DNA of 64,000 bases from Clostridium sp. (lineage in GTDB: Bacteria; Bacillota; Clostridia; Lachnospirales; Lachnospiraceae), in the NCBI GenBank assembly GCA_023664325.1, contig JAMPFS010000006.1, positions 13,008 through 77,007 on the forward strand. The letters are read 5' to 3'. Numbering within the stretch: the stretch's first letter is position 1; every line of letters begins with the position of its first letter. The position numbers were made by a program, and so were the translations under genes. The notes beneath the pieces were generated by a model. That model was not told the origin of the DNA, made no database searches, and worked only from the letters and a program-made list of their open reading frames with translations. Positions 45,539 through 62,881 of the stretch are shown here, piece after piece.

Positions 45539-45568
45539 AGAAAAAGAATGTTCATAAGGGAGTCATTT

Positions 45569-47022: not shown

Positions 47023-47755
47023 GATAAGATGTTCGGTTGTGATGGCTGTTTATAATGGCGAGGCTTATATTCGCCAGCAGTTAGATTCCATTCTGGAAAA
47101 TGTGACTGTTCAGGATGAAATTGTGATATCCGATGACGGCTCCACGGATAAGACCAAAGAAATTATTCTTGCATACCAGAAAAATGGAGCAGGTATCCGG
47201 TTATTTGATGGAGAAAGAAAAGGTGTCATCGCTAATTTTGAATATGCCATTCGGCAGGCGAAGGGAAAGTATATTTTTTTGTGTGATCAGGACGATGTAT
47301 GGGAACCCAATAAAATAGAAAGGGTATTAAGATGTTTTGACGAGAATGGCTGCATGGTAGTTGTACATGATGCGGACATATGGAATGAGGAAGAAAATGT
47401 CATGGAACCATCCTTTTTTCAATATCGAAATTCCGGAGCAGGCATCTTAAAAAATATTGTTAAAAATACATATATTGGCTGCTGCATGGCGTTTTGCAGC
47501 GAGTTGCGAAACTTTATCCTTCCAATTCCCCGAAATATTGAAATGCATGATCAATGGATTGGAATTTGGGGAGATATCGTGGGAGAAAATTATTTTTTAA
47601 ATGAAATTTTGTTCCATTACCGAAGACATGGGAAAAACGTCTCAGATTTACAGCATTATCCATTTGGAAGGATGCTGAAAAACCGGATTGTACTGTGTGT
47701 GGAGCTGTTAAAGAGATGGTGGAAAAAGGTAAGGGCTGGGAGTTTATTATGTTAG
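47015..47755 (+). CDS. family-2 glycosyltransferase
   Basis: VVMAVYNGEAYI, ISDDGSTD, LCDQDDVW. Confidence 0.85.
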   Translation: MGEIRCSVVMAVYNGEAYIRQQLDSILENVTVQDEIVISDDGSTDKTKEIILAYQKNGAGIRLFDGERKGVIANFEYAIRQAKGKYIFLCDQDDVWEPNKIERVLRCFDENGCMVVVHDADIWNEEENVMEPSFFQYRNSGAGILKNIVKNTYIGCCMAFCSELRNFILPIPRNIEMHDQWIGIWGDIVGENYFLNEILFHYRRHGKNVSDLQHYPFGRMLKNRIVLCVELLKRWWKKVRAGSLLC

Positions 47756-48996
47756 GGCTGATTTTTGCATTTTTTATATTTACATTATTGGGCTATTGGC
47801 TGTACAAGTCTGTCATTTCACCAATGGTAATGTTTAACGCTATTTGGCTGGTTACATTGGCATTGTATGAAATGAAATGGAGTGAGATACAGAACGATTT
47901 AAATGAGCGATGCATATTATGTATCTGGCTGTGCCTGTTGGGGTTTAACATTGCCTGTATTGTTACGAAATTGTTTCCTAAAATTAAATCTGCAAACGGA
48001 GTTGGGCTTAGATTCAAAACACGGCGTTACATACCGCTAAATAAAAGGATCGTTTATATTAATATTTTTATTCTTATTGTATTGCTTCTTGAAGGCTGGT
48101 ATTCGGAAGGATTTCCGCTTTTTTGGATTTTATTCCGTGCAGAAAAGACATATTTTGATTTTGGGATTCCGTCTTTAAATGGCGCATTGTATGGGTTGAT
48201 TATATGTATGGGGGCATATTCCCTGTTCAAAAAAACAAAATGGAAATATTTTTACCTGGGAATCGGTCTGCTGGTGGTTTCCAGGCAGGTGATTATGTCA
48301 ATTGTCATTGAAGGAATTATTGTGTATTTGTTTGAAAATCCTGAAACATTGAAAAATGTGGATAAGAAAAAGGTCGCACTGGTTGGAATTGCGGCACTGG
48401 TCTTTTTTGGAATATATGGAAATTTCAGGACTGGAAAATCTTCTTTTAATTTTGTGTTTGAGGCGAAGCCGGCTTATGCCAATATGCCAACTGTATTTAA
48501 GTGGATTTATGCATATTTATGCTTTGCAATTAACAACTTTAACCAATTGGTGGCGATAAGTGATGGTGGTATTAATTATGGCAGTTCTATGATGAATGAA
48601 CTTTTGCCGACCGTACTGGCAGGAAAGATTGGATTTCACGATGTGTACAATCCTTATTATCTGGTGAAAATCAATTTTAATGTATCCACTTATCTGCCAT
48701 CCGTTTATCTGGATTTTGGAATGCCAGGGATTTTTATTTTTAATATGCTTATTGGCGCAATGGGAAGTATTCTTTTTCGCAGGCATGTGCAGCACAGATG
48801 TGTATGTAATCAATTGTATTATGCAGTATATATCCATAATATTTTATTGTTGTTGTTTGCTAATTTTTTCTTGAATCCGACGATTATTGTTCAATTTATT
48901 TATATTTGGCTGTTGTTTAAAAATACAGATGTAAAACAGCGACAGGAATGGAGGAGTAGGAGTGAAAACAGTTACTATCATTGTTCCGGTATATAA
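47749..48996 (+). CDS. polytopic membrane protein, probable Wzy-type repeat-unit polymerase
   Basis: More than 10 TM helices, no soluble domain, embedded among glycosyltransferases with a Wzx flippase in the locus. Confidence 0.5.
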   Translation: MLGLIFAFFIFTLLGYWLYKSVISPMVMFNAIWLVTLALYEMKWSEIQNDLNERCILCIWLCLLGFNIACIVTKLFPKIKSANGVGLRFKTRRYIPLNKRIVYINIFILIVLLLEGWYSEGFPLFWILFRAEKTYFDFGIPSLNGALYGLIICMGAYSLFKKTKWKYFYLGIGLLVVSRQVIMSIVIEGIIVYLFENPETLKNVDKKKVALVGIAALVFFGIYGNFRTGKSSFNFVFEAKPAYANMPTVFKWIYAYLCFAINNFNQLVAISDGGINYGSSMMNELLPTVLAGKIGFHDVYNPYYLVKINFNVSTYLPSVYLDFGMPGIFIFNMLIGAMGSILFRRHVQHRCVCNQLYYAVYIHNILLLLFANFFLNPTIIVQFIYIWLLFKNTDVKQRQEWRSRSENSYYHCSGI

Positions 48997-49933
48997 TGTG
49001 AAGCAGTATATACAAAAAGGAATCGAGAGTTTAATTGCACAGACCTTAGATGATATAGAAATTATTTTGGTTGATGATGGGTCTACGGATGGCAGTGAAT
49101 TAGAATGTGATGGATTAGGTGAAAAATATGCTAATGTCACTGTTGTCCATAAAGAAAATGGCGGGGTATCTTCTGCACGAAACTGTGGTTTAAAAATAGC
49201 AGGGGGAGAATATATCGGGTTTATGGATGCAGACGATTGGGTATCTCCCAGGTTTTGTGAAATTTTATATAATTGTGCAAAAAAGAATCAAGCGGATTTG
49301 GTCATGTGTGATTTGAAAAAAACAAATGTTGTTGATAAGGAACAGGATATCTTTGATGTTTCATGTGAAATATTATCTACGGATGAAGCATTTGAATACA
49401 TAATAGATATGCAAAGAAATATTACCGGAAGCTGTTTTAATAAATTATATAAAAGAAGTATAATTGCGGATAAAACTTTTCCAGTTGGTATTGCAATTAG
49501 TGAAGATGTAGATTTCCTGTTGCGTGTATTATGGGATTGCAAAAGTATTGTGTATGTACCAAAAGTATTGTGTTATTACCTGTTCAGGGAAGGGAGTGCC
49601 GTACATTCTTTGTATACTTCAAGAATGGAAGAGGATTTGATAAAACTGGGAGAGGGTTGGATACGGCATCCATATGTACTAAAGGATAGCGAAAGAATAC
49701 AAAAAATAACATTATATCGGTTATATATGTGTGAGTTAGCAATTGCTAATAAAAGAATTATTTCCGGCAGCGATGAAAAAAAGGTTATAAATAAGCTTCA
49801 GCATAATGTCAGGAAATATTGGAAAGATGCACTAAGGGCAAAGCCAGTAACGATAAAACAAATGCAATTATTGGTATTTGGAACAAGTTTCCGGTTATAT
49901 AAAAAGATTTACCGGAAAATCCGGCTTAATTGA
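48962..49933 (+). CDS. family-2 glycosyltransferase
   Basis: VTIIVPVYNV, VDDGSTDGS, FMDADDWV; GTG start behind ggagtaggag. Confidence 0.85.
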   Translation: MKTVTIIVPVYNVKQYIQKGIESLIAQTLDDIEIILVDDGSTDGSELECDGLGEKYANVTVVHKENGGVSSARNCGLKIAGGEYIGFMDADDWVSPRFCEILYNCAKKNQADLVMCDLKKTNVVDKEQDIFDVSCEILSTDEAFEYIIDMQRNITGSCFNKLYKRSIIADKTFPVGIAISEDVDFLLRVLWDCKSIVYVPKVLCYYLFREGSAVHSLYTSRMEEDLIKLGEGWIRHPYVLKDSERIQKITLYRLYMCELAIANKRIISGSDEKKVINKLQHNVRKYWKDALRAKPVTIKQMQLLVFGTSFRLYKKIYRKIRLN

Positions 49934-49958
49934 TTTCAGGGCAGCACATTAGGAGGAG

Positions 49959-51053
49959 ATGAGCATTTTGAAAAAGTTTGCAATGTATTTACCACAGTTT
50001 CATGAGATACCAGAAAATAACGATTGGTGGGGCGAAGGATTTACTGAATGGAGTAATGTAAAAAGTGCGAAACCATTATATTATGGGCATATTCAGCCTA
50101 AATATCCTAAAAATTATAACTACTATAACTTGTTGGATAAAAGTATAGTCGAGTGGCAAACAAAATTGGCTAATGAATACGGTATAGATGGTTTTGTGTA
50201 TTATCACTATTATTTTTCAGGAAAATTGATTATGGAAAAACCTGTTGAAAATTTATTGAAATGGCAGGATGTTCATCAAAAATTCTTTTTTTGCTGGGCA
50301 AATCATACATGGCTGAAAGGAAAAACGAGAGATCGAAAAGTATTAATTGAACAGACATATGGAGATGAAAGCGACTGGAAACAACATATGGATTACCTTA
50401 TCAGATTTTTTAAAGATGACAGGTATGAAAAGAGAAATAATAAGCCGGTATTTATGTTGTTTAAAAGTGATATTACAAATAAAAAGGAAATGTTAGACTA
50501 TTTTGATTTAAGATGCAAACAGGAGGGATTTGACGGTATTTGTATCATTGAAACTTATCATGAGAGTATGGAAAGAAAAAAATTAGAAAAATTTAAAGAA
50601 ACATTAGTTTCACAGTCGGAAATAGTTTATTGTAGAGAACCGAGTGTTTCTACAGGAATCTACTATACAAAACATTTATTTTCCAGGATTTTACATAAAT
50701 TGATGCGGGAAAGAGAGCTGCCTGTTTTGAAATCGAAGGTTGCTCGAATTAACGGAAATAAATTATACAATTACATGCTAAAAAAAGATTATCAAAAGCA
50801 TATGCCTTTAGATGTCGCACATGGGTTATTTTTTGAGTGGGATAATACACCAAGACATGGAAATCATGGTTATATTATTTTACCGCCAGATAAAGATCTA
50901 TTTGATAAATATATGGGAATCATAAAAAATGATGAATATGTTTTTATTAATGCATGGAACGAATGGGCAGAGGGAATGATGCTGGAACCGACAGAGCAGA
51001 ATGGATATCGTTACTTGGATTGGATGAAAGAATTAACGAATCAGGAGACATGA
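49959..51053 (+). CDS. WbsX-family (GH99-like) glycosyltransferase
   Basis: FAMYLPQFHEIPENNDWWGEGFTEWSNV signature and INAWNEWAEG. Confidence 0.75.
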   Translation: MSILKKFAMYLPQFHEIPENNDWWGEGFTEWSNVKSAKPLYYGHIQPKYPKNYNYYNLLDKSIVEWQTKLANEYGIDGFVYYHYYFSGKLIMEKPVENLLKWQDVHQKFFFCWANHTWLKGKTRDRKVLIEQTYGDESDWKQHMDYLIRFFKDDRYEKRNNKPVFMLFKSDITNKKEMLDYFDLRCKQEGFDGICIIETYHESMERKKLEKFKETLVSQSEIVYCREPSVSTGIYYTKHLFSRILHKLMRERELPVLKSKVARINGNKLYNYMLKKDYQKHMPLDVAHGLFFEWDNTPRHGNHGYIILPPDKDLFDKYMGIIKNDEYVFINAWNEWAEGMMLEPTEQNGYRYLDWMKELTNQET

Positions 51054-51092
51054 CAAAAGCGTAAGCAGACGAATAGAAAATAAAGGAACGAA

Positions 51093-51956
51093 ATGAAGTT
51101 AATAAAAATAATATATTTTGCATATGGAAGTGTCTATACCAAATTAAGATTGAAAAAACGATATTTTTTATGCAATAGAGGAATGGGAGATACCATAATT
51201 TTTTTATCAAAATTAAAAGAAATTAAACAAAAAAATCCTGAAACCCCAATAAATCTGATTGTTCAGAAAAATCAGGTTCCTCTTATGAAACCTTATATGC
51301 AGTATATTGATGACTATGTGGTATTTCATAAAAACAGAATGAAAGTTTTTATGTGGCTGGCAGCGAAGGGATTATTACCCGGAAATATCCGGTTTATCCT
51401 TCCGGAAGGTGCCTATGCAATTCTTGGCTATCGTAGAATTTCCATTCAGGATTTGATTAATATCACGTTTGATCTGCCACCGGATAATCAGGACTATGAG
51501 AAGCCTTGCTTTGAATGGGATAAAGGGCGCAGAGAATATTTGCTTGATAAGTACCAGTTGAAAAAGGGAAAGTTTGTGATTTTAGGTTTGGAGGCGGTAT
51601 CTATTGAGAGAATAGCCCTGGATTATTGGGAACGGATAGCGAAAAAATATAAGGACATGGGATATCAGGTTATCAGTAACTTAAGCAGCCCGGAGCAGTC
51701 TCCGGTTCCCGGTACGATAGGATTGTTTTTGCCATTAAACGAAATATATCTGCTGGCAGAGTATGGCGGTTATTTTATAGGCTTACGAAGCGGTTTGTGT
51801 GATTTACTGGCATTTTCAGGTTGTGGGATGACCGTCATCTATCCTACGGAACAGGACAGGTATAAGTATTCTTTTGCCAATATGTGCTTTGCAAAGGAAA
51901 TCACGGAAATTTTGGTATGTGAGGTTGAGGGCTGGCTGAGAAAACTGGTGTTATGA
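51093..51956 (+). CDS. hypothetical protein with GT9-like (heptosyl/Kdo-transferase fold) pattern
   Basis: NRGMGDTIIFLSKLKEIKQKNPETPINLIV near the N-terminus and GYFIGLRSGLCDLLAF ... VIYP near the C-terminus parallel the GLGD ... NDSGxMHxAAA ... LYGP layout of GT9 enzymes. Confidence 0.4.
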   Translation: MKLIKIIYFAYGSVYTKLRLKKRYFLCNRGMGDTIIFLSKLKEIKQKNPETPINLIVQKNQVPLMKPYMQYIDDYVVFHKNRMKVFMWLAAKGLLPGNIRFILPEGAYAILGYRRISIQDLINITFDLPPDNQDYEKPCFEWDKGRREYLLDKYQLKKGKFVILGLEAVSIERIALDYWERIAKKYKDMGYQVISNLSSPEQSPVPGTIGLFLPLNEIYLLAEYGGYFIGLRSGLCDLLAFSGCGMTVIYPTEQDRYKYSFANMCFAKEITEILVCEVEGWLRKLVL

Positions 51957-51972
51957 GGTTTGGAGGCAATTT

Positions 51973-53409
51973 ATGAAATCTTTAAAAATAAATACATTAA
52001 TGAATATGCTTAAAGTTTTGATGAGTATGCTTTTTCCACTGATTTCTTTTCCATATGTGTCGAGGATTTTAGGCCCTGCGGGAATTGGAAAAGTAGATTT
52101 TTCAGCATCAGTCGTGTCATATTTTTCCTTATTTGCTTCATTAGGTATATCAACATATGGGATTCGGGAGGGTGCAAAAGTTAGAGATCATAAAGATGAT
52201 TTGAGTACTTTTGTTCAGGAAATTTTTATTATTAATATGGTTTCAACAGTATTTTCATATGTTGTGTTCGGCTTTGCGGTTTGCAAATTAAGTGTATTGC
52301 ATGATTATTTAAAAATTTTATGCATTTGTGGATTGAATATAGGATTCACTACAATTGGGATAGAATGGTTATATGGTGCGTTGGAAGAGTATACATATAT
52401 AACAGTAAGAAGCATCTGTTTTCAACTGATTGCAATTATTTTGATGTTTTTTTTGATCAGGGATGCACAGGACTATTTACAATATGCATTTATAACGATT
52501 TTTGCAGCAGTTGGTTCTAATCTATTCAATATCATTCATTCCAGAAAGTTTGTTGTATGGAAAAAGAAACAAAAATATAATTTTAAAAGACATTTTAAGC
52601 CGATTTTAATCATATTTGGGTTAAATTTTGCATGTAGCATTTATATGAGTTTAGATAAAACAATGTTAGGTGTAATATGTGGTGATAAAGAAGTTGGATT
52701 ATATTCTGCGGCAATTAAAATAAACCGATTAGTGCTACAGTTAATCTTATCTATTGGAACTGTAATCCTTGCAAGACTTTCATATCTTTATGCCAATAGG
52801 GAACGAGAAACATTTAACAGGTTGTTCTTGAAAGTTTTCAACTATGTATTGTTCCTTACAGTTCCGTCTACGGCAGGTCTTATTTTATTAAGTAAACAAG
52901 TATTAGGTTTATTGAGTGGAAATGAATATTTGGAAGCTGATATCACATCCAAAATACTATCACTGATAATAATTATTATTGGCGCAAGTAATTTATTATC
53001 GGTTCAAATATTTATCGCAATAGGCAAGGAAAAATACTCTTTGCTTGCAAGTGGTGCAGCGGCTTTTATTAATTTTCTTAGCAATTTGTTTCTTATTCCA
53101 CAATATGGAAAAGTGGGTGCAGCAATTAGTACGGTTATGGCTGAAACAATCGCCTTAATTGTGTGTGTCTATTTTGCAAGGAAAATAATAGATTTTCATG
53201 GTGTTGTGAAAAATGTATTTGAATTTGCATTGGGAACATTTTTCTTCATCCCCGTTTTTTATGTGATAAGTGATAAGATACATAACGACTTGATTATAAT
53301 TGTTGTGATGGTGCTATTATCTGCCTGTGTATATGGATTCTTTCTTCTGATTATCAGAAATAGCGTGGCAATTGATATAAAAAATATGATAATAGGGAGG
53401 CAAGTATGA
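51973..53409 (+). CDS. Wzx-type polysaccharide flippase (MOP superfamily)
   Basis: About 14 TM helices and the N-terminal pattern typical of polysaccharide biosynthesis proteins. Confidence 0.75.
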   Translation: MKSLKINTLMNMLKVLMSMLFPLISFPYVSRILGPAGIGKVDFSASVVSYFSLFASLGISTYGIREGAKVRDHKDDLSTFVQEIFIINMVSTVFSYVVFGFAVCKLSVLHDYLKILCICGLNIGFTTIGIEWLYGALEEYTYITVRSICFQLIAIILMFFLIRDAQDYLQYAFITIFAAVGSNLFNIIHSRKFVVWKKKQKYNFKRHFKPILIIFGLNFACSIYMSLDKTMLGVICGDKEVGLYSAAIKINRLVLQLILSIGTVILARLSYLYANRERETFNRLFLKVFNYVLFLTVPSTAGLILLSKQVLGLLSGNEYLEADITSKILSLIIIIIGASNLLSVQIFIAIGKEKYSLLASGAAAFINFLSNLFLIPQYGKVGAAISTVMAETIALIVCVYFARKIIDFHGVVKNVFEFALGTFFFIPVFYVISDKIHNDLIIIVVMVLLSACVYGFFLLIIRNSVAIDIKNMIIGRQV

Positions 53410-54935
53410 ATATAGATTACATAATCGTCCAGGCTGGCGGCAAAGGCACCAGAATGGAGCATTTAACAGCCAATAAACCAAAATGTTTAGTACCGGTGAA
53501 TAATCTGCCGATGCTGTTTCATTTATTTCGGAAATACCCGGATAAGAAATTCATTGTCATTGGTGATTACAAATGTGATGTTTTGCGGGAATACCTCAAG
53601 ACATTTGCGAAGGTTTCCTATCTTTTGATAGATGCAGGAGGATGCAGCGGAACCTGTGCAGGGTTAAAACAGGCGGTGGAATATATTCCAAAGGACAGGG
53701 GATTTATGCTAATCTGGTCGGATCTGGTTCTGCCGGAGGACTTTGAACTGCCGCAGGAATTTACAGTGGAAAGTGGACAGCCGGCAGACAGGGATTATAT
53801 CGGGCTTTCCGGGGATTTTAAGTGCCGCTGGAAATACGAAAACGGCATATTTGAGGAGGAGGCATCCATAGAGAGGGGGGTGGCAGGCTTCTTTATATTC
53901 CACAATAAGGATTTGCTGGAAAGAGTTCCCGAAGAGGGTGAATTTGTCCGCTGGTTAAAAGAGCAGAACGTGAAACCAAAGGAACTGGTTTTAAGGAAGA
54001 CAAAGGAATATGGATTGATTTCTGAATATAGAAAGCTGATACAGGAAAAATGCCGACCGTTTAACCGGATGACTGTTGAGGGAGACCGTATTCGGAAAGA
54101 AGGAATTGATGAGCAGGGAAAAAAACTGGCAGTCCGGGAGAAAGCATGGTATCAGCATGTGGAATCTCTTGGGTATGACCGGATTCCGAAGATATACAGC
54201 TACGAACCTTTTGTAATGGAGAAGGTAACAGGAAAAAATGTATATGAATATGAAGAACTTTCCTATGAACAGAAAAAAGAGGTGCTGACAGGGATCATGG
54301 ATAACCTGAAGTTTCTTCATTCACTGGGAGAACAGGAAACAGATTATTTCAGTATCAAGGAAACTTATATTGATAAGACCTTTGACCGTTTAGAGAAAAT
54401 AAGGGATCTGATTCCTTTTGGCAGGGATCGGTTTATTCGGATTAACGGAAGAAATTGCAGAAATGTATTCTTTTACCAGAAGGAGCTGGAAAAGAGGCTG
54501 TATCATTACAGGGCGGATAAATTTCAGCTGATACATGGTGACTGTACTTTTTCCAATATGATGCTGAAAGAAGATTTGAGTCTGGTATTGATTGATCCAA
54601 GAGGATATTTTGGAGCCGTGGAGCTGTATGGTGATCCCGCATATGACTGGGCAAAATTATATTATTCCTTGATGGGAAATTATGACCGGTTTAACCTGAA
54701 ACAGTTCCGGCTGGATATAGAAGAATCGGAAGTGAAACTTAAGATAGAATCCAACGGATGGGAGAAGTTGGAACCGGTATTTTTTGAACAGCTAAAAGGG
54801 GAAGCAGAACCGGAGGATATCAAACTGCTGCATGCGATTATATGGCTGGCATTAACGACTTATGCATGGGAAGATTATGATTCCATTTGTGGGGCATTTT
54901 ATAACGGGCTGTACTATCTGGAAGAAGTATTGTAA
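53406..54935 (+). CDS. bifunctional sugar-phosphate nucleotidyltransferase / APH-ChoK-type kinase fusion
   Basis: N-terminal IIVQAGGKGTRMEHLTANKPKCLVPV (GxGTR...PK); C-terminal LIHGDCTFSNMML ... LIDPRG (HxDxxxxN catalytic loop, D of DFG-equivalent). Confidence 0.7.
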   Translation: MNIDYIIVQAGGKGTRMEHLTANKPKCLVPVNNLPMLFHLFRKYPDKKFIVIGDYKCDVLREYLKTFAKVSYLLIDAGGCSGTCAGLKQAVEYIPKDRGFMLIWSDLVLPEDFELPQEFTVESGQPADRDYIGLSGDFKCRWKYENGIFEEEASIERGVAGFFIFHNKDLLERVPEEGEFVRWLKEQNVKPKELVLRKTKEYGLISEYRKLIQEKCRPFNRMTVEGDRIRKEGIDEQGKKLAVREKAWYQHVESLGYDRIPKIYSYEPFVMEKVTGKNVYEYEELSYEQKKEVLTGIMDNLKFLHSLGEQETDYFSIKETYIDKTFDRLEKIRDLIPFGRDRFIRINGRNCRNVFFYQKELEKRLYHYRADKFQLIHGDCTFSNMMLKEDLSLVLIDPRGYFGAVELYGDPAYDWAKLYYSLMGNYDRFNLKQFRLDIEESEVKLKIESNGWEKLEPVFFEQLKGEAEPEDIKLLHAIIWLALTTYAWEDYDSICGAFYNGLYYLEEVL

Positions 54936-55040
54936 AGCATTGAGAGAAATTTATCAGGATAGCTGTGAAATTCCCGGCTTTACAAGTGCAAAACGGGATT
55001 TTGCGGCTGTCTAATTTATTATGAAAAGAGGAACAGAATT

Positions 55041-55634
55041 ATGATTAAATATTTTGAAGATACCGTGGGAATCATTGATGATTCACTGCACAGTATTTCG
55101 ATGGACACCTTTAACCGGCTCGTGGAGCAGACGACAGAGGCATTAAAACGGGGAAACAAAGTAGTTGTTTCCGGTCTGGGAAAGAATGTGCCGATTTGTG
55201 ACAAATTTGTAGGTTCCATGCTGTCACTGGGATTAAATGCTAATTTTTTACATACAAATTCGGCTGTACATGGAGATATGGGAATGGTACAAAGCGGAGA
55301 TCTTGTTATTATCCTGACAAAAAGCGGTTCCACCAAAGAGTCCGTTTATCTGGCAGAACTTTTAAAGCAGAGGGAGAATGTGAATTTGTGGCTGCTGACC
55401 TTTCAGCAAAAAAGTAAATTGGTAGATATGATTGGAACAGAGAAAAGCCTTGTCATAGATATGGAGCATGAAGGGGATATGTGGGATATTATGCCGAATA
55501 ATTCAACAACACTGAATTTGATCGTGTTACAGGCAGTTGTCATGGAAGTAGCAAAGAAGATGAATCTGTCGCTGGATGATTTTAAACGGAATCATCCGGG
55601 TGGAGCAATCGGGGAGAAGTTAAGTCATGTATGA
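55041..55634 (+). CDS. single-domain SIS sugar-phosphate isomerase, KdsD/KpsF-like, without CBS domains
   Basis: VVVSGLGKNVPICDKF, HTNSAVHGDMGMV, ILTKSGSTKE, FKRNHPGGAIGEKL parallel arabinose-5-phosphate isomerase motifs. Confidence 0.7.
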   Translation: MIKYFEDTVGIIDDSLHSISMDTFNRLVEQTTEALKRGNKVVVSGLGKNVPICDKFVGSMLSLGLNANFLHTNSAVHGDMGMVQSGDLVIILTKSGSTKESVYLAELLKQRENVNLWLLTFQQKSKLVDMIGTEKSLVIDMEHEGDMWDIMPNNSTTLNLIVLQAVVMEVAKKMNLSLDDFKRNHPGGAIGEKLSHV

Positions 55635-56004
55635 TCTTGTTATATCATCATTAAACCATACATGGATACTGGATTTGGATGGAACGGTTGTCCGGCATAA
55701 TGGTTATAAATTGGATGGAAAAGATACCCTGCTGCCGGGAGTCAAAGAATTTTTTGCACAGATACCGGAAGGAGACAGGATTCTTTTCTTAACATCCAGA
55801 GAAGAACAGTACAAATCTTTAACAGAGAGTTTCCTCAAAGAAAACCAGATACGTTATGACCATATCATTTATGGTGTTCCTTATGGAGAACGGATTCTGA
55901 TAAATGACAGCAAACCAAGCGGATTGGAGATGGCAAAATGTTTGTGCCTTAAAAGGGATGAAGGATTAATAGATGTAAAGATCGTAGTGGATGAGAAACT
56001 GTAA
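55627..56004 (+). CDS. small HAD-superfamily phosphatase-like protein
   Basis: Motif I ILDLDGTV, FLTSR, INDSKP; start overlaps the SIS stop. Confidence 0.6.
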   Translation: MYDLVISSLNHTWILDLDGTVVRHNGYKLDGKDTLLPGVKEFFAQIPEGDRILFLTSREEQYKSLTESFLKENQIRYDHIIYGVPYGERILINDSKPSGLEMAKCLCLKRDEGLIDVKIVVDEKL

Positions 56005-56106
56005 ACGATATAACAGACTGGCGCATGTGGCAGCATATATAAAAGTTTAATGTTAAGAAGCACATCCGGGAATCGGATGCGCTTCCCTTACAAGATACCT
56101 GGTTGC

Positions 56107-57003
56107 TTATATTCCATATTCCTTATACAGTTCTTCAAGGTAAGCGGCATCGTTGGCAGCCTTTTCGATTAAATCGGATCGTCCGTCTTTTATAAGCTTT
56201 TGAAAGAGTTGGAGAGCCTGTTTTTCACCTTCCCGTAATCCGGTCTCCATGCCCTCACGTTTGCCTTTTGCGATAGCGGAAGCCATGTCTCGTTCATAGC
56301 GTTCCCTTGCCTCGCATTGAAGTTTGATTTTTTCGTCATCCGTCAGTTCGTGGAGTGTAACAACCGTATCCTTGATATCCGAATTTTTCATTGCCAACAT
56401 TTTTAATTCCTCCCATGTGGTGGCTTTAAAAAGCCTGGCCCAAAAGTATAAATCATCGGGTTTCTTTTCAATAGAATCATCTTCCATTGATTTTAAGTTT
56501 AACATACGCAGGCTCAATTTGTCACTATATATTTCGTGATTTTTCACATTCATCAGCTTGTATTCCGAGTAAAATTCCGGTGTCAGGCCAGGAAGGTTGA
56601 AATCAACGATTCCGATATGGATTGTGGCATGTATATTGGAATAAATATCCCCCTTTTGAAGCTGGTCAAAGGTGCGGCAAAGATAGGTGATGGAACGTTC
56701 CGGCCAGTCGCCGAAATCATTTACCTGCATTTCAATGTTGATGAATTCGTTATGGTTCAAACGAAGATGAAGGTCTAATACACAGGTTTTCTCATCAATG
56801 GTTTCGCCGAGGATTATGGGGTTAAGAATGGTAACTTCACGGATGCTTCCTCTTGTCAGACCGAGCAGTGCGCATAAGAGTCCTTTCAACGCATTTTGAT
56901 TCTTTTGGAAGACTGAACGAAACATATAATCATTCGTCAGTGTGTACGGGAGTTTTCCGCTGGGAAGATTTAAAAAGTTATGATTTGTAGTCTGTTTTGC
57001 CAT
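56107..57003 (-). CDS. Rpn-family recombination-promoting nuclease / putative transposase (PD-(D/E)XK)
   Basis: LTNDYMFRSVF, CVLDLHL...INIEMQV nuclease-core pattern; paralog of 61057-61992. Confidence 0.75.
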   Translation of the reverse strand: MAKQTTNHNFLNLPSGKLPYTLTNDYMFRSVFQKNQNALKGLLCALLGLTRGSIREVTILNPIILGETIDEKTCVLDLHLRLNHNEFINIEMQVNDFGDWPERSITYLCRTFDQLQKGDIYSNIHATIHIGIVDFNLPGLTPEFYSEYKLMNVKNHEIYSDKLSLRMLNLKSMEDDSIEKKPDDLYFWARLFKATTWEELKMLAMKNSDIKDTVVTLHELTDDEKIKLQCEARERYERDMASAIAKGKREGMETGLREGEKQALQLFQKLIKDGRSDLIEKAANDAAYLEELYKEYGI

Positions 57004-57310
57004 ATAGGCCTCCTTTGTGGTATTAAGTTTATTGGTGGCATTGTGGTTTTGGATTTGCGACGAAGATATTTCGTAGTTATACTAGTTAACCTTAGTATTT
57101 GCCGAAGGCAAATGCTTAGTTTAACTGCATATACCGCGGTAAAATATTGAATTCGGCAATTAATTTCGTTCGCGAGTATACAAACTGGAAAAATTGAAAA
57201 AATGAAATGTACAAAGACACATAAAAAAACAAGACACTATTAATTTTATTATGAAAATGTGTCAAAAAAGTGTTTTGTGCAAAAAATTTTAATTGATAGG
57301 AGAATAGAAT

Positions 57311-58423
57311 ATGTATGATTATTTAGTTGTAGGAGCAGGATTATATGGTTCTGTCTTTGCCCATGAAGCAAAGATGAAGGGGAAGTCTGTCTTAGTGATT
57401 GATAAAAGACCGAACATTGCAGGGAATGTATATACAGAAGCTATAGAGGGTATTCATGTTCACAAATATGGTGCGCATATTTTCCACACAAACAATCAAA
57501 AAGTATGGGAGTATGTAAACCAATTTGCTGTTTTCAATCGGTTTACGAACAGCCCTGTTGCAAACTATAAGGGAGAATTATACAGCCTCCCATTCAATAT
57601 GTACACATTTAATCAAATGTGGGGTGTTACGATTCCGAAAGAAGCTGCGGCAAAGATTGAAGAACAGAGAAAAGAAATCAAGGGGGAACCCCGCAATTTG
57701 GAGGAACAGGCTGTTTCGTTAGTAGGTCGTGACATCTATGAAAAACTGGTAAAAGGTTATACCGAAAAACAGTGGGGGCATGACTGCAGGGAACTCCCTG
57801 CATTTATTATTAAGAGACTGCCGGTGAGGCTTACTTTCGATAACAACTATTTTAATGCACTCTATCAGGGGATTCCCATCGGAGGCTATACGAAAATGGT
57901 GGAGAAAATGCTGGCAGGAATTGAAGTCCGCCTGAATGTGGATTATCTCGAACATAAAGAAGAATATGATGCAATGGCGGAGAAAGTGGTATATACAGGT
58001 CCAATCGATGCTTATTTTGCATATCGGTTGGGAACACTGGAATACCGTTTGGTCCGTTTTGAGACAGAAGTGCTGAATCAGCCGAATTTTCAGGGAAATG
58101 CTGCTGTAAATTATACAGACAGGGAAACCCCGTGGACAAGGATTATTGAACATAAATGGTTTGAATTTGGAAAAGATGAGGCAGGCAACGATTTACCCAA
58201 AACGATTATCAGCCGGGAGTATTCCTCTGAGTGGAAACCGGGGGATGAGCCGTATTATCCGGTAAATGATGTGAAGAATGGAATTTTGTACCGGCAGTAC
58301 AAAGAGCTTGCAGATGCAGAATCGAAAGTAATATTTGGCGGACGTTTAGGGGAATACAAATATTACGATATGGATGCAACGATTGCGGCAGCCTTAGATA
58401 TGTGCAAAATTGAGTTGGGTTAG
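57311..58423 (+). CDS. glf: UDP-galactopyranose mutase
   Basis: YDYLVVGAGLYGSVFA FAD fold, GAHIFHT, YTEKQWG, GRLGEYKYYDMD. Confidence 0.92.
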   Translation: MYDYLVVGAGLYGSVFAHEAKMKGKSVLVIDKRPNIAGNVYTEAIEGIHVHKYGAHIFHTNNQKVWEYVNQFAVFNRFTNSPVANYKGELYSLPFNMYTFNQMWGVTIPKEAAAKIEEQRKEIKGEPRNLEEQAVSLVGRDIYEKLVKGYTEKQWGHDCRELPAFIIKRLPVRLTFDNNYFNALYQGIPIGGYTKMVEKMLAGIEVRLNVDYLEHKEEYDAMAEKVVYTGPIDAYFAYRLGTLEYRLVRFETEVLNQPNFQGNAAVNYTDRETPWTRIIEHKWFEFGKDEAGNDLPKTIISREYSSEWKPGDEPYYPVNDVKNGILYRQYKELADAESKVIFGGRLGEYKYYDMDATIAAALDMCKIELG

Positions 58424-58522: not shown

Positions 58523-58567
58523 ACAACAAACCTGAAATATTTCGTGAATATTTCAGGTTTGTTGTTT
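58523..58567 (+). terminator. strong rho-independent terminator after glf
   Basis: acaacaaacctgaaatatt tcgtg aatatttcaggtttgttgt, 19-bp perfect stem, then tt. Confidence 0.8.
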
Positions 58568-58592
58568 ACGTATATTAAAAAATTTGTTATAA

Positions 58593-58622
58593 TTGACGAC
58601 ATATTTATCATTAAAACATAAT
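58593..58622 (+). promoter_or_regulatory. candidate promoter of the three-gene cassette
   Basis: TTGACG (58593-58598), 18-nt spacer, CATAAT (58617-58622) in a very AT-rich tract. Confidence 0.35.
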
Positions 58623-58678: not shown

Positions 58679-60046
58679 GTGGTGCATATTTTGAAAAATA
58701 AGGGAAAACATAGAGAACGGCTTTACGAATTAAGATATAGAAATAAACTTGAACGTTGTAAGAAAAGGCGGAAGGGAAAGCGCATGGTCGGCATTCATGC
58801 ATGTTCCGATTGTGGATTGGAGAGTAATATCGTCGGTGCTGACTACATGAAAGTTATGACACATTTGTCTAAAAAACAGTTTGGCTTGTCTCCGTTCTTA
58901 TGCCATACAGGAAAAAGGGAAATAATAACGATACCTGAAGTGTTTTCTATATCAGAGAACCCGGAAACGGTTATAAAAATATTACGGCGCATTTATACAA
59001 TAGGAAAAGAGAAGAAAACAACGGAATTGATATTTGACCATGAAAATTGCAAGAGTTTGGGTTTATCTGCAAGCACCATGTTAGATATTATTGTTTTGGC
59101 TGTTGACCGGTATAGGCAGACAATCCGCCATCCGATCGAATATGGAGGTACCATTCCCCGTGACGAGCTGGCAAAAGATATTTTATTAGCAAGTGGTCTT
59201 CCGTATCATTTAAATGCGGAATATTATGCGCAGGTCAATCAGGAACAAATGGAATGTTTTGAAACGGTTAAAGGTGTCTATGATATAGAAGCTAATAAAG
59301 CTGATAAAACTGCCACAGATATGACATTGTATTTTAACAGGTGCCTTAAAACTCAAAATTATGAATTGAACGAGCATGGATTAAATCTTCTGAGTACGAT
59401 GCTTGGTGAAGTAATTGGCAATTGCGAAATCCATGGTGGCGAGGGTTCGACATGGTATACACAGGGACATTATCAAATACAGGAGGGGAATCCCTATGGG
59501 GAAATGCAGTTGTTATTTCTAAACATAGGATCTACAATTTATGATGGTTTAAAGCATGAAGCCAGCGAAGAAACGCAACGCAGGTTAGAATATATTCTAA
59601 AGCGGCAATACAGAAATATTTCTGGTGATTGGGATGAAGAGATGATATATACTGTTTTTGCATTGCAGGAGGGTATTAGCCGATTGCGCGATGGAAATAT
59701 AAAAGGATACTCTAAACGGGGAACAGGAACGGTTAATCTAATTGAATTATTTTATGATATAGGTGAATGTGATAATGGGTTAAAACCTAAAATGTCTATA
59801 CTATCAGGGGCTACTCAAATTATTTTTGATGAACGGTATAAGCTCACGGATGTAAATTTTAAAAACGATATGGCATTTGGAAGTGGTAATAGAAAAATAA
59901 TTGCATTTAATTGTGATAATGACATATACCAGCGTGCTGATAATAAGAATGTAAAAAAATTGAAAGAATATTTTCCAGGTACTGCAATTTCACTAAGATT
60001 TTACTTGGATAGTCGTTATATTGAAAAAAGAAAGGCGGGAAAATAA
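58679..60046 (+). CDS. hypothetical protein with GHKL (SpoIIAB/RsbW-like) ATPase-type C-terminal half; cassette gene 1
   Basis: LGEVIGNCEIHGGEG (N-box-like) and KRGTGTVNLIELF (G2-like); the likely true start is Met 58784, behind ggcggaagggaaag. Confidence 0.45.
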   Translation: MVHILKNKGKHRERLYELRYRNKLERCKKRRKGKRMVGIHACSDCGLESNIVGADYMKVMTHLSKKQFGLSPFLCHTGKREIITIPEVFSISENPETVIKILRRIYTIGKEKKTTELIFDHENCKSLGLSASTMLDIIVLAVDRYRQTIRHPIEYGGTIPRDELAKDILLASGLPYHLNAEYYAQVNQEQMECFETVKGVYDIEANKADKTATDMTLYFNRCLKTQNYELNEHGLNLLSTMLGEVIGNCEIHGGEGSTWYTQGHYQIQEGNPYGEMQLLFLNIGSTIYDGLKHEASEETQRRLEYILKRQYRNISGDWDEEMIYTVFALQEGISRLRDGNIKGYSKRGTGTVNLIELFYDIGECDNGLKPKMSILSGATQIIFDERYKLTDVNFKNDMAFGSGNRKIIAFNCDNDIYQRADNKNVKKLKEYFPGTAISLRFYLDSRYIEKRKAGK

Positions 60047-60047
60047 A

Positions 60048-60389
60048 ATGGCAACAGATATTAAAATATCACCTTACCGTAGAAGTGGTGCAAAGATTTT
60101 TACCAGTAGGGATAATGGAATCAATGCACGTTCAGAATTAGATTTGGATGCTTTGGATCAGAAGTCGGAAATAATTAATGTATTGATTCCTTCGGATACA
60201 TGGAGTATCAATCCTTCCTTTTTTGGCGGATTATTTGAAGACAGCATAAAATTTTATGGGGATGCCTTTGAAACACATTATATTTTTTTATACAATGATA
60301 AATCGGTTTTAAATGAAGCTCTGAAAAAGAATATTGAAAATAATATTAATTATGTCCGGCGTAGTATGAATGAAGGTGATGTAGGTTGA
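60048..60389 (+). CDS. STAS-like (DUF4325-type) small protein; cassette gene 2
   Basis: FTSRDNGINARSELDLD ... VLIPSDTWSINPSFFGGLFEDSI; ATG lies 2 nt after the gene 1 stop, RBS aaaggcggga. Confidence 0.5.
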   Translation: MATDIKISPYRRSGAKIFTSRDNGINARSELDLDALDQKSEIINVLIPSDTWSINPSFFGGLFEDSIKFYGDAFETHYIFLYNDKSVLNEALKKNIENNINYVRRSMNEGDVG

Positions 60390-60913
60390 GTTGGTCACTT
60401 GTATTGGAGGGATTAGGCAATATATCTAATGTAGCAGCAACGGGTTTAGCAGCGTATAGTATTGTGATTACCATCAAAGAATATAACCGCATCAAGAAGA
60501 CAGAACAGGAGCAAATGCTTTCGGCTCAGCAAATGCTTTGGTATAATGAAATTGCATTGCAGGATATCGTAAAAGCGTTGAATGTTTTTATTGAGCATTC
60601 CAACCAAACAATTCATGATATATCGTATGATAAACCAATTGATAATGAAAAGGGAAAAATTTTATATTCAAAAATTGCAGAGGAGTGCAGTGTTATCAAT
60701 GAAAGGCTTATGGGAATGAAAATTTTCGACTATCAATTATATAGAAAATGTGATAGGGTGTTACAGGAAATTCTTGATCAATATGCAAATATAGTTGAAA
60801 GCTTAGTGGAAAAACGGTATTCGTTATATGCAGAACTGTCATCAATTCAAAAATGTAAAGTCGAAATAATGGCATTTCTTTATGAATATGGCAAACGGTT
60901 AACGAACTCTTAG
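60386..60913 (+). CDS. small single-pass membrane protein with helical cytoplasmic tail; cassette gene 3
   Basis: TTG start overlaps the gene 2 TGA (TTGA), RBS gaaggtga; TM segment LVLEGLGNISNVAATGLAAYSIVITI. Confidence 0.5.
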   Translation: MSWSLVLEGLGNISNVAATGLAAYSIVITIKEYNRIKKTEQEQMLSAQQMLWYNEIALQDIVKALNVFIEHSNQTIHDISYDKPIDNEKGKILYSKIAEECSVINERLMGMKIFDYQLYRKCDRVLQEILDQYANIVESLVEKRYSLYAELSSIQKCKVEIMAFLYEYGKRLTNS

Positions 60914-60925: not shown

Positions 60926-60949
60926 GGGAGTCTGCTTTGACAGGCTCCC
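60926..60949 (+). terminator. hairpin closing the cassette (no clear T-run)
   Basis: gggagtctg ctttga caggctccc, 9-bp stem including one G-U pair. Confidence 0.4.
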
Positions 60950-61056: not shown

Positions 61057-61992
61057 TTATTTCTCTAAAGCCTCTATTTCGCAGATTGACAATCCTGTTT
61101 TTTCGGCAATCGTAGGTTTATCCAGGACATCCAAAAGGTTTTTTGCAACTTCAAGCATCGCCTGTTTGTGACCTTCCTGTAATCCTTCCTGTAATCCTTC
61201 CTGCCAACCTTCTTCACGTCCTTCCCGCATGGCTCGTTTTCGGATGCCAATCTCAATCGCAAGATTGTCTTTGCGGGCTTCACACTGCATTCGGATTTTC
61301 TCGTCTTCACTAAGCTGTGCCATTGTATAGACACATTCGTCAATGGCTTCATTTTGTTCTGCCAGCATATGCAATTCCTCCCAACTTTCTGCACGGAACA
61401 GCCTTGCCCACTGATATAGCTGCGAGTGTTCCTTGTTTTTGGTGACATTTTCGTTGTCAATCTGCCGCAGATTCAGGACAAAAATCCCAAAATCATCCAG
61501 ATAGCGGTTATGGTACTGCGGATTTTCATTGATCAGATAGTATTTGGAGAGAAGCTCCTCCACCCCGTCAAATAAATCAAAATCCAGAATGCTAATCTGC
61601 AGGGCAGGCAATGCATCGGCATAATCCGCCCCTTCGTCCAGGTTGTTGTACGTCCTGCAAAGATAGGTCAGCGACCGCTCTTTCCAGTAAATCTGTTTTA
61701 CAACCTGCATTTCTATGTTGATATACTGCTTTTTGTTTAACAGCAGTTTGATATTCAATACGCAGGTCTTGCTGTTGATTTTCTCCCCAAGCTCAATGGG
61801 GTTGCAGATATCCAGATCCGTTACGTTGTCCGGGTCAATGCCCATAATTGCGCAGATTAAATGTTTCAATACGTTCTTATTTTTTTGCATGACCGCCCGG
61901 AACATATAGTCATTTGTCAGGCGGTAAGGGACTGCACCCTGCATCACTGTGCTGTGGCGCATGTTGTTTGCTTCGTCATTTTTCTTTGCCAT
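61057..61992 (-). CDS. Rpn-family recombination-promoting nuclease / putative transposase (PD-(D/E)XK)
   Basis: LTNDYMFRAVM, CVLNIKL...INIEMQV; C-terminal REGREEGWQEGLQEGLQEG repeats. Confidence 0.75.
   Translation of the reverse strand: MAKKNDEANNMRHSTVMQGAVPYRLTNDYMFRAVMQKNKNVLKHLICAIMGIDPDNVTDLDICNPIELGEKINSKTCVLNIKLLLNKKQYINIEMQVVKQIYWKERSLTYLCRTYNNLDEGADYADALPALQISILDFDLFDGVEELLSKYYLINENPQYHNRYLDDFGIFVLNLRQIDNENVTKNKEHSQLYQWARLFRAESWEELHMLAEQNEAIDECVYTMAQLSEDEKIRMQCEARKDNLAIEIGIRKRAMREGREEGWQEGLQEGLQEGHKQAMLEVAKNLLDVLDKPTIAEKTGLSICEIEALEK
61172..61231 (-). repeat. 12-nt periodic coding repeat inside the Rpn paralog
   Basis: ccttcctgtaat ccttcctgtaat ccttcctgccaa ccttcttcacgt ccttcccgcatg on the plus strand, encoding x-E-G-x tetrapeptide repeats. 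Confidence 0.85.
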
Positions 61993-62425: not shown

Positions 62426-62881
62426 ATGTCAAAAACATTAGTAGCGTATTTTAGTTATTCGGGAAATGCAAAGGCGGCAGCCGCTAAGGTGGCAGAGCTT
62501 GCAGGAGCAGATTTGTTTGAAATTAAGCCGGAGAATCCATATTCTGCCGATTATCAGGCATGTGTGGATGAGGCGAGAAAGGAACTGCAGGAACATGCAA
62601 GACCGAAGTTAGCGGCAAAGGTAGCGGATATGAGCAGCTATGACCGGATTATTTTAGGCTTTCCCAACTGGTGCAAAACCTGTCCGATGCCTGTTTTATC
62701 ATTTTTAGAGGAATATGACTTAAAAGGCAAAAAGATTGATGCATTTGTCACCAATGGCGGCGGAGGTGTCGGAGACAGTACTGGGGATATCCGAAAAAGC
62801 GCGGCAGGCGCCGAGGTATCCGATGCAGTAAATGGCAATGATTTATCGGATGACAGGATAAAGGAATGGCTGGGATTATAA
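62426..62881 (+). CDS. flavodoxin-family protein
   Basis: LVAYFSYSGNAK FMN-phosphate loop and GFPNWC; 151 aa. Confidence 0.75.
   Translation: MSKTLVAYFSYSGNAKAAAAKVAELAGADLFEIKPENPYSADYQACVDEARKELQEHARPKLAAKVADMSSYDRIILGFPNWCKTCPMPVLSFLEEYDLKGKKIDAFVTNGGGGVGDSTGDIRKSAAGAEVSDAVNGNDLSDDRIKEWLGL

Follow-up and report, generated by a model that had tools for sequence, protein, structure and literature searches.

We analyzed a stretch of 64,000 nucleotides from Clostridium sp. (family Lachnospiraceae; GenBank assembly GCA_023664325.1, contig JAMPFS010000006.1, positions 13,008 to 77,007 of the forward strand), which we call the window, and in it a cassette of three tightly coupled genes on the same strand at 58691-60913, with a hairpin on either side and a promoter-like site upstream. 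Gene 1 ('K', 58691..60046, + strand) encodes a protein of 451 amino acids (aa) with a basic tail, a STAS-like domain and a GHKL-like domain; gene 2 ('S', 60048..60389, +) encodes a DUF4325-type STAS-like protein of 113 aa; and gene 3 (60386..60913, +), which starts with TTG, encodes a single-pass membrane protein of 175 aa. The open reading frame (ORF) of gene 1 opens at a GTG at 58679, and the start at the TTG at 58691 (MKNKGK...) agrees with the homologs and with the NCBI record of an identical protein of 451 aa, labelled 'hypothetical protein'. As read from the sequence, the TAA of gene 1 (60044-60046) is followed by a single spacer base and then by the ATG of gene 2 at 60048, and the TTG of gene 3 sits within GTTGA, overlapping the TGA of gene 2. 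An earlier note on this DNA, made from the letters alone, had described three same-strand ORFs without gaps; the coordinates, the junctions and the peptide motifs quoted for them are present in the sequence.

The upstream boundary of the cassette is a hairpin 3' of glf (58523..58565, +) with a perfect stem of 19-20 bp (-25.1 kcal/mol, z -7.5). It is AT-rich and has a terminator-like look. The earlier note had taken it for a strong terminator; its perfect stem is there, but the U tract is weak, so that a terminator scan did not call it. The stem is also unusually long and perfect for a terminator, and an alternative role of the hairpin may be as a site of recombination or protein binding at the edge of the cassette. 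At the other end, a 9-bp stem including one G-U pair (60926..60949, +; z -4.2) closes the unit as had been proposed, lying between the convergent gene 3 and an Rpn-like gene (-22.9 kcal/mol for a 51-nucleotide stretch); it has no U tract, and the terminator scan called this hairpin no more than the first, neither of them having a good U tract. The sigma-70-like promoter candidate TTGACG-18-CATAAT is likewise where it had been placed (58593..58622, +), matching 10 of the 12 consensus positions, and a second candidate, TTTACG-17-TATAAT with a TG element, lies at 58565..58593 (+); both are predicted from the consensus match. The GC content of the cassette (0.32-0.40) is indeed below that of its immediate flanks (0.41-0.45); even lower values (0.29-0.32) are reached in the glycan genes farther upstream, at 52000-53000.

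Gene 1 and the CapK/VapK family

None of the three window proteins has a Pfam, NCBIfam or PADLOC match in direct searches, and searches of PDB sequences, with the single proteins and by profile, returned nothing beyond noise. Relatives of gene 1 are numerous: we found 164 at 90% clustering, none of them named and the majority from Lachnospiraceae, and a profile search of 1.84 billion representatives recovered at least 1,401 clusters at 50% identity with E<=1e-3 (965 at E<=1e-10 and 607 at E<=1e-30), which among the matches listed are typically 420-470 aa long besides shorter fragments.

The AlphaFold2 (AF2) model of gene 1, built from a 50-sequence alignment (pLDDT 88.4, pTM 0.86), divides the protein into a basic, partly helical N-terminal tail (aa 1-47, 58691..58831, +; helix at aa 4-33), a predicted STAS-like beta-alpha domain (aa 76-196, 58916..59278, +) to which the model, Foldseek, Pfam and the alignment with VapK all point, and a GHKL-like alpha/beta domain (aa 203-449, 59297..60037, +), assigned from the model and from motifs in register with those of VapK and CapK. 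The N-terminal region that the earlier note could not place is thus the basic tail plus the STAS-like domain. Conservation was counted in an alignment of 73 diverse relatives with 24-40% identity to the window protein. The tail is a family-wide feature (median 42 aa, 37% K/R, net charge +12; at least 20 aa long in 69 of the 73 sequences), and the only Pfam matches that recur among the 73 are STAS_2 (three members) and STAS (one member). Weak Foldseek matches of the model in the PDB include RsbS, TM1442, a Dyadobacter STAS protein and the STAS domain of SLC26A9.

The putative GHKL domain carries an N-box, E240/N244/H248 (E-x3-N-x3-H; 59408-59434, +), a G1-like motif, N278-x-G280-x-T282 (59522-59536, +, with the N278 codon at 59522-59524), and a G2 motif, R343-G-x-G-T347 (59717-59731, +), which in the family read GE-V-I-x-N-A-E-x-H-S-G, N-F-G-x-T and R-G-x-G-T. 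Eleven residues, G169, E240, N244, G280, G344, G346, S372, G373, F406, N407 and G430, are invariant in 73/73 sequences, and H248, R343 and T347 are nearly so. In canonical GHKL proteins the order is N-box helix, two strands, G1, helices and lid, G2, helix, and strands. The order of the secondary-structure elements in the AF2 model and the order of the motifs match this expectation for a Bergerat fold.

Two switches built from a STAS-GHKL kinase and a STAS protein have been characterized (Chambers et al., EMBO J 2026, PMC13373217). CapK, which combines a helix-turn-helix (HTH), a STAS and a GHKL domain, phosphorylates S54 on STAS helix 2 of CapS upon single-stranded DNA (ssDNA), CapS being a DNA-binding repressor in which STAS is joined to a winged HTH (wHTH), and the substitution N218A of the N-box Asn of CapK abolishes the phosphorylation. 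The other, vapKSC, is a three-gene operon for VapK (STAS plus GHKL, about 296 aa), VapS (STAS plus a short tail, 116 aa) and the PIN toxin VapC, in which VapS neutralizes VapC until it is phosphorylated and phosphorylated VapS releases VapC; it gives about 2-log protection against phage Bas42. The serines S54 of CapS and S48 of VapS are described as 'absolutely conserved', and activation by ssDNA goes through a conserved aromatic residue, W68 in CapK and F54 in VapK (PMC13373217).

We took the sequences of VapK, CapK and VapS from the appendix of PMC13373217; VapS was verified against PDB entry 9Z7O, and the residue numbering of VapK, obtained by optical character recognition (OCR), is uncertain. 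Since our scans for VapK relatives gave one metagenome locus and one plasmid locus (Deinococcus), the VapK reference alignment holds three sequences, namely those from Escherichia, the metagenomic locus L055 and Deinococcus plasmid P5. The alignment of the gene 1 family (73 relatives) matches this reference with an hhalign probability of 96.3% and E 1.8e-9 over 280 columns, spanning residues 8-290 of the 296-297 of VapK, and matches a joint VapK and CapK alignment at 93.1% and E 3.2e-7. Against the single sequences the E-values are 7.5e-4 for CapK and 4.4e-3 for VapK, with the N-box, G1 and G2 in register. The corresponding motifs in the gene 1 family and VapK are the STAS core (IxFDHSxC and ITFIFTHC), the N-box, FNFG and VDFG, ALQEG and WACQSG, RGxGT and PRGLGL, and FPGTIIS and FEGTILN, and N244 aligns to the N-box Asn of both CapK (N218) and VapK. 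Plain HMMER scores are not significant (6.8 and 5.8 bits), yet CapK, VapK and SpoIIAB outrank all 180 shuffled controls; a hhalign comparison with the LytS-type histidine kinase of locus L024 was not significant. From the match to the three-sequence VapK alignment, with the motifs in register, we conclude that gene 1 belongs, as a distant member, to the STAS-GHKL family of CapK and VapK. The earlier assignment to GHKL or anti-sigma-kinase-like proteins is therefore upheld by the homology to VapK and by the invariant N-box Glu and Asn and G2 glycines, with no direct Pfam HATPase match.

A GHKL-type protein paired with a STAS protein also recalls SpoIIAB-SpoIIAA and RsbW-RsbV, with which the N-box E-x3-N-x3-H is shared, and the cassette could be an ordinary partner switch of this type acting on a sigma factor encoded elsewhere. 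The N-box does resemble those of SpoIIAB and RsbW, and Foldseek gives weak matches of gene 1 to chains of anti-sigma-F complexes (8jzt_B and 8ih8_C, probability 0.35-0.41). However, when the gene 1 family is compared with SpoIIAB and RsbW by hhalign, the N-box helix is all that aligns, at a non-significant E of 0.03-0.1; profile comparison puts VapK, and not SpoIIAB, closest to the family; and there is no similarity at the Pfam level, no window protein having an HATPase_c_2 or STAS match at threshold. In the cassette, moreover, STAS is fused to the GHKL-like protein and a membrane protein stands third, and the unit is horizontally mobile with a patchy distribution (see below). No sigma factor or PP2C phosphatase occurs in any annotated neighborhood of the cassette or its relatives, or among the recurrent families of 138 neighboring genes, and for this reason we rejected the sigma-factor switch, which we regard as highly improbable.

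Gene 2 is linked to DUF4325

A profile search with gene 2 recovered 228 relatives. The window protein and 18 close relatives have no match to PF14213 (DUF4325) at E<=10, so that gene 2 itself stays below every Pfam threshold; but its Spirosoma ortholog scores 23.1 bits against PF14213, just over the gathering score of 23.0, and this ortholog matches the window gene 2 family with an hhalign probability of 99.1% and E 8.9e-19. By this route gene 2 can be classified, on sequence, as a divergent DUF4325-type STAS protein. Its AF2 model (pLDDT 93.2) has the element order b-b-a-b-a-b-a, which is the STAS order, although Foldseek against the PDB is not significant for this model (macro domains at E 0.16, RsbS at E 1.2). 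The DUF4325/STAS-like label of the earlier note thus agrees with both the ortholog and the model, the window protein alone missing PF14213. At 113 aa, gene 2 is STAS only and has no DNA-binding domain.

S57 (60216-60218, +) is the second residue of helix 2 (aa 56-77) in the AF2 model, and together with G24 it is invariant in 61/61 gene 2 sequences from all lineages, R21, R28, F59 and G61 being near-invariant. The phospho-serine of SpoIIAA, S58, lies at the N-terminus of STAS helix 2 (as cited in the CapK/VapK literature). In a permissive alignment with VapS, which is not significant, the two proteins are co-linear and S57 falls within one residue of VapS S48. In the Deinococcus vapKSC locus, VapS is annotated as a 'STAS-like domain-containing protein', which is consistent with VapS belonging to DUF4325, and DUF4325-linked PIN.4 genes have been described (PMC5499597).

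Gene 3 is a small single-pass membrane protein

As the earlier note had it, gene 3 consists of one transmembrane (TM) helix and a helical tail. The helix spans about aa 9-30 (60410-60475, +), and after it come a conserved W-Y motif and a helical domain. The same layout recurs in the relatives: in all lineages, gene 3 contains a single strongly hydrophobic stretch (with Kyte-Doolittle maxima, over 19 residues, of 1.66-2.64), then basic residues, a W-Y or W-M motif about 25 residues later, and a helical domain of about 130 aa with a single invariant residue, D131, and no enzymatic motif. By the positive-inside rule, basic residues mark the cytoplasmic side of a membrane segment, and the helical domain is therefore placed in the cytoplasm, where it could meet the proteins of genes 1 and 2. 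Gene 3 has no match to PIN or any other Pfam family, its profile against PDB sequences gives coiled-coil noise only, and its hidden Markov model (HMM) does not match VapC in loci L055 and L056. The two groups of gene 3 differ outside the membrane. Firmicute proteins have almost nothing there, with neither a signal-peptide-like N-terminus nor a periplasmic stretch, whereas those of Gram-negative loci (L023, L025, L051, L052 and L043) have a signal-peptide-like N-terminus and a periplasmic stretch of 30-100 aa before the TM helix. The N-terminus of the Salinivibrio protein is lipobox-like.

These features bear on what the third protein does. It may be a membrane-anchored sensor or scaffold in a signaling module that informs the K-S pair of envelope events, for instance a phage adsorbing or injecting, or stress on the membrane; the output of the module would then come from the basic tail of gene 1 acting on nucleic acid, from phosphorylation of a host or phage target, or from free gene 2 protein. 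The signal peptide and periplasmic stretch of the Gram-negative proteins would suit sampling of the envelope, a cytoplasmic domain with one invariant residue and no enzymatic motif is compatible with such a role, and the basic tail, found family-wide in gene 1, is as plausible an output as an input. On the other hand, the third gene is the effector in the sole characterized relative, no other conserved gene is available as an output, the Firmicute proteins have almost no extracellular part, and the overlapping frames of genes 2 and 3 suggest a stoichiometric pair, as in toxin-antitoxin systems. We hold the signaling module to be possible, though on balance unlikely.

The trio is a conserved and mobile unit

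In essentially every locus that we examined, across Firmicutes, Bacteroidota, Acidobacteriota and Proteobacteria, the three genes keep the same order and the same strand, gene 1 being followed by a gene 2 of about 105-120 aa and a gene 3 of about 170-280 aa, often with overlapping stop and start codons; in the window and several relatives the stop of gene 2 overlaps the start of gene 3. Protein sizes on metagenomic and genomic contigs (designated by L numbers) include 451/112/176, 448/107/205, 395/106/179, 450/110/182, 452/110/176, 419/107/179, 420/108/170 and 469/113/181 aa. The order holds in 25 GTDB species loci, which belong to Lachnospiraceae, Blautia, Halanaerobiales, Desulfosporosinus, Ruminiclostridium, Bacillus, Saccharofermentans, Haloplasmataceae, Oligoflexia, Acidobacteriaceae and Terriglobales, and plasmids of Pantoea, Vibrio, Salinivibrio, Providencia and Spirosoma carry the trio too, at 22-27% identity. 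The proteobacterial genes 2 and 3 are also picked up by iterative HMMs; therefore, all three genes are homologous across phyla. No fourth gene recurs with them: among 138 neighbors in 22 species, none of 169 Pfam families was seen more than 4 times. The earlier note had supposed a self-contained cassette, and the co-occurrence of the three genes across genomes bears this out.

The contexts of the trio are varied. One copy lies within a prophage, adjoining the tape-measure gene, one is directly upstream of the terminase genes on a prophage contig of IMG/VR, and one is in a serine-recombinase element with Abi_2. Plasmid copies adjoin ParAB (on two plasmids), integrases and HNH genes. On the 6.8-kb MOBQ ColE-like mobilizable plasmid pZ34CR2292_colE10 of Providencia vermicola, the trio takes up about one third of the record, and the remaining listed genes are annotated for functions in replication, mobilization or transfer, for DNA binding and as a 'tRNA modification GTPase'; gene 1 there spans the origin of the record and is missing from the PLSDB gene table. 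Other trios lie between TIM and T2SSF with AbiEii/RelB nearby, between GDH and NRPS, and between PolC and PheA. The trio is thus a conserved, horizontally mobile unit, and contexts such as prophages, plasmids, Abi_2, AbiEii/RelB and ThsB-TIR/SIR2 are typical of a conflict system or of cargo of mobile genetic elements (MGEs), in line with the earlier note, which had thought of a conflict or defense module or of mobile-element cargo and had pointed to the lack of a nearby sigma factor or PP2C gene and to the position between Rpn-family genes.

Phage sequences were searched in several ways. Each of the three proteins is matched by a PHROG profile of similar length and unknown function (phrog_3364, E 2.8e-15; phrog_37359, E 1.8e-6; phrog_3857, E 9e-4), and the phage protein J7KH07 in BFVD has the fold of gene 1 (E 4.7e-6, TM 0.65). 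With tblastn, three gene 1 homologs gave no match in 50,697 phage records, and with blastn the Pantoea trio gave none in complete E. coli genomes. The Francisella prophage KIRK carries, between cI and int, a hypothetical protein of 293 aa, a DUF4325 protein of 112 aa and a TM protein of 125 aa (Fhv_0046-0048; PMC7924643). Judged by the listed lengths and annotations, this is the same layout as that of the cassette, and the KIRK proteins are uncharacterized.

Such contexts would also fit an addiction or superinfection-exclusion module that primarily serves the plasmid or prophage carrying it rather than general defense of the host. The copies on the 6.8-kb MOBQ plasmid, beside ParAB on two plasmids, in prophages and on IMG/VR contigs, as well as the placement between cI and int in Francisella, speak for this, but many chromosomal copies sit between housekeeping genes with no visible MGE. 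In its mechanism it overlaps with the conflict module that we favor below, and sequence cannot separate the two; we consider a role primarily for the carrier element distinctly unlikely.

In five Lachnospiraceae contexts (the window, L001-4, L005-8, L010-14 and L015-16), the trio stands at the 3' end of, or inside, a glycan locus on the same strand. These five independent placements raise the question of whether the cassette regulates the neighboring polysaccharide locus locally, in the manner of CapKS, or is a partner switch on glycan synthesis or export, and partner-switch modules controlling polysaccharide layers do exist. However, gene 2, with 113 aa of STAS only, has no DNA-binding domain; close relatives lie by glycolysis genes, PolC/PheA, GDH/NRPS, prophage genes and recombinases; no neighbor recurs over the 22 species; and glycan genes are absent from the vicinity of the copies on plasmids and in phages. 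We rejected a dedicated glycan-locus regulator since the context is not conserved beyond one clade, and we rate this explanation as very unlikely.

Comparison of related loci gave several further observations. In L010-L014 (about 10300-17350), the same trio with the same upstream glycan genes is followed, in different samples, by alternative cargo, namely IS66, IS110, an rve transposase, ThsB-TIR with TIR_2, SIR2/STALD, SocA_Panacea, PIN and a Y1 transposase; because the cargo alternates behind one and the same trio, the DNA just 3' of the cassette is a hot spot of recombination in these loci. Between L001 and L002 (1-7900), the trio and the downstream GT2 and SpoIVA genes are identical and the upstream glycosyltransferase sets are completely different, and therefore the cassette stands at the fixed edge of a swapped glycan block. 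Gene 1 is split or truncated, with genes 2 and 3 intact, in four loci (L037 at 7773-9206, L047 at 7863-9138, L050 at 7941-8207 and L054 at 7762-9112), the sources being Blautia schinkii, a Haloplasmataceae metagenome-assembled genome (MAG), a Eubacterium MAG, in which the last approximately 87 codons are left next to PolC, and an IMG/VR prophage. These disruptions may be real decay of the sensor or assembly errors. Tolerated loss of the activator would lend weak support to the mechanism proposed below, and the sample is too small to lean on.

Comparison with known systems and a model of the switch

Among the closest known systems is vapKSC. It and the cassette are both three-gene operons with the same order and the third gene in the position of the effector; in both, the first protein joins STAS to GHKL within a single polypeptide, VapK and the gene 1 family being homologs; in both, the second protein is a STAS protein of about 110-120 aa whose helix 2 has, close to its start, a serine that is absolutely conserved; and both are found on plasmids and near defense genes, Deinococcus plasmid P5 being annotated as ATP-binding, STAS-like and PIN. 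The differences are that the third protein of the cassette is no PIN nuclease but crosses the membrane once and has a helical domain in the cytoplasm, that gene 1 is about 150 aa longer and has insertions in its GHKL-like domain as well as a highly basic tail at the N-terminus, that the G1 Asp is mostly Asn in the cassette, that the direct similarity of gene 2 and VapS is not significant, and that the cassette lacks an aromatic residue at the candidate columns for VapK F54, the numbering of which is uncertain. With CapK-CapS, the cassette shares a kinase/STAS-substrate pair of the same family and a putative switch serine on STAS helix 2, but CapK has an N-terminal HTH and CapS a wHTH, whereas gene 1 begins with the basic tail and gene 2 is STAS only; furthermore, capKS lies upstream of CBASS, Bub or Thoeris operons, whereas nothing is conserved 3' of the cassette. 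Small TM effectors occur in abortive-infection systems, for example CBASS, Pycsar and Thoeris. The cassette is like these in coupling a sensor and switch to a small membrane protein, which is likely a killing device; it differs in that its switch would be a protein kinase/STAS pair and not a nucleotide second messenger, and we know of no sequence relationship between its third protein and their TM effectors.

Putting these observations together, we propose, with a probability of about 0.5, that the cassette acts as a conflict module (anti-phage, abortive infection or toxin-antitoxin-like), mobile and self-contained, which is built on a switch of the VapKSC/CapKS type. Gene 3 would be coupled to gene 2 at the level of translation. 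In the resting cell, the gene 2 protein would bind the cytoplasmic domain of gene 3 and keep gene 3 inactive. A cue from infection or stress would activate the putative kinase gene 1; the basic tail suggests that this cue is possibly a nucleic acid, sensed by the tail together with the STAS-GHKL cleft. Gene 1 would then phosphorylate gene 2 at the candidate acceptor S57, upon which gene 2 would let go of gene 3, and gene 3, acting as a presumptive toxin, would damage or depolarize the membrane, so that the infected cell stops growing. An anti-phage phenotype would follow from this scheme by analogy with vapKSC.

Several results weigh against this proposal. In canonical GHKL proteins, the Asp of the G1 box (DxGxG) contacts adenine. 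At the corresponding position 278 in the gene 1 family, the window protein and 51 of the 73 relatives have Asn, and the others have Ser (10/73), Asp (7/73) or Gly (5/73), while VapK and CapK have Asp; thus the canonical Asp is replaced by Asn or Ser in about 85% of the members, and the second Gly of G1 is replaced by Thr or Ser at 282, although G280 is invariant and the N-box Glu and Asn and the G2 glycines are kept. Since the Asp is mostly Asn, ATP binding or kinase activity of gene 1 may be altered or absent, its nucleotide binding may be non-canonical, or the domain may work without phosphotransfer. No Pfam HATPase match was found in the window gene 1 or in the sets of 50 and 73 relatives, and structural searches by Foldseek against the PDB were without significance for GHKL or STAS with either the gene 1 model, whose best E-value is 0.1, or the gene 2 model. 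Compared by hhalign with VapS or CapS, gene 2 gives no significant match, whether narrow or broad profiles are used. In the register given by hhalign, there is no aromatic residue in gene 1 at the columns that may correspond to VapK F54 (F49 of the OCR text falls on K121 and F57 on T129, the numbering of VapK being uncertain), and the trigger may therefore differ from that of VapK. PADLOC-DB v2 has no match to the window trio and matches three plasmid trios at chance level only, and many loci with the trio lie among housekeeping genes. Finally, gene 3 is no more than a putative toxin and could equally be an anchor or a sensor.

The change in G1 in particular leads to another reading, which we think rather improbable, namely a switch triggered by nucleic acid that uses other nucleotide chemistry (another NTP, or partner switching without a nucleotide), with gene 3 as a TM sensor or a pore connecting envelope events to it; gene 1 would then possibly differ from VapK in not being a kinase that depends on ATP, since most members of the family have exchanged the adenine-binding Asp for Asn or Ser and have gained a strongly basic tail. 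If true, such a switch with an envelope sensor or pore would be a distinct immune logic, going beyond a swap of effectors. For the conflict module with a VapKSC-type switch, which we prefer, the homology of gene 1 to VapK, the affiliation of gene 2 with STAS/DUF4325, the topology of gene 3 and the conservation and mobility of the unit are the observed components.

Surroundings of the cassette in the window

The cassette is flanked by a glycan biosynthesis locus ending in glf, by two Rpn/PDDEXK_2 genes and by a flavodoxin gene; the identities of glf (57311-58423) and of the flavodoxin gene (62426-62881) were confirmed. An exact look-up of the glf protein, aimed at sister strains that have or lack the cassette, returned no record. 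The two PDDEXK_2/Rpn-type genes, of the family labelled 'recombination-promoting nuclease', are both on the - strand (56107-57003 and 61057-61992); they are paralogs with 43% identity in the same orientation, they bracket glf and the trio, and one of them interrupts the glycan locus. An Rpn-family gene is also found near the Pantoea plasmid trio. We considered a composite transposon bounded by the Rpn-like genes and rejected it: the paralogs are just 43% identical, and no long DNA repeats flank the segment of glf and the trio, which is therefore not a recent composite transposon.

The surface-polysaccharide biosynthesis locus spans 45518-58423, with the trio at its 3' end. It opens with a NusG-like gene (45518-46156), possibly a locus-specific antiterminator, and contains several GT2 genes, a WbsX glycosyltransferase gene, a Wzx-type flippase gene (51973-53409), a fused nucleotidyltransferase/APH-like kinase gene (53406-54935), a SIS-domain gene, a small HAD-like ORF and glf. 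The repeated placement of the trio at the 3' end of glycan loci in Lachnospiraceae could reflect a link between receptor glycans and the sensing of infection. Farther upstream, a gene of the AAA-ATPase_like plus PDDEXK_9 family lies at 36351-38090, and the same family is found directly 3' of the trio in the Lachnospiraceae glycan region L005-L008 (10355-12037). A gene for a BlaR1-type M56 peptidase (43067-44917) precedes the glycan locus in the window, and M56 and Penicillinase_R genes lie a few genes upstream of another trio in L018/L019 (173-1851); the presence of M56 peptidase genes near both trios is probably a coincidence.

Implications for the STAS-GHKL switch family

The earlier note could match the cassette to no named system. 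This stands insofar as our literature searches, including PMC13373217, found no description of a version with a kinase, a STAS protein and a membrane protein, but it has to be amended, as the sister systems vapKSC and CapKS were published in 2026. What is new in the cassette is the membrane-protein third gene, the basic tail and the altered G1, and what is known is the CapKS/VapKSC switch family. An exchange of the effector alone would not astonish a specialist; the family, however, is large and unannotated, and it occurs in gut commensals, plasmids and phages. The STAS-GHKL/STAS switch came to be recognized as an immune module only in 2026, with two known outputs, the repressor CapS and the PIN toxin VapC, and the published searches found 443 capKS and 289 vapKSC loci (PMC13373217). 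For vapKSC, the share lying within 10 kb of DefenseFinder/PADLOC hits is 36%. The cassette would add a membrane protein as a third output, one that is apparently much more abundant, and the trio is far more widely distributed than the two published contexts, including Lachnospiraceae of the human and animal gut. In practical terms, these results support the addition of new models to defense-annotation resources. The work on VapKSC provides a mechanistic template, so that the hypothesis put forward here is directly testable, and the basic tail together with the change from Asp to Asn in G1 could show how the specificity of sensing evolves in this family of switches.

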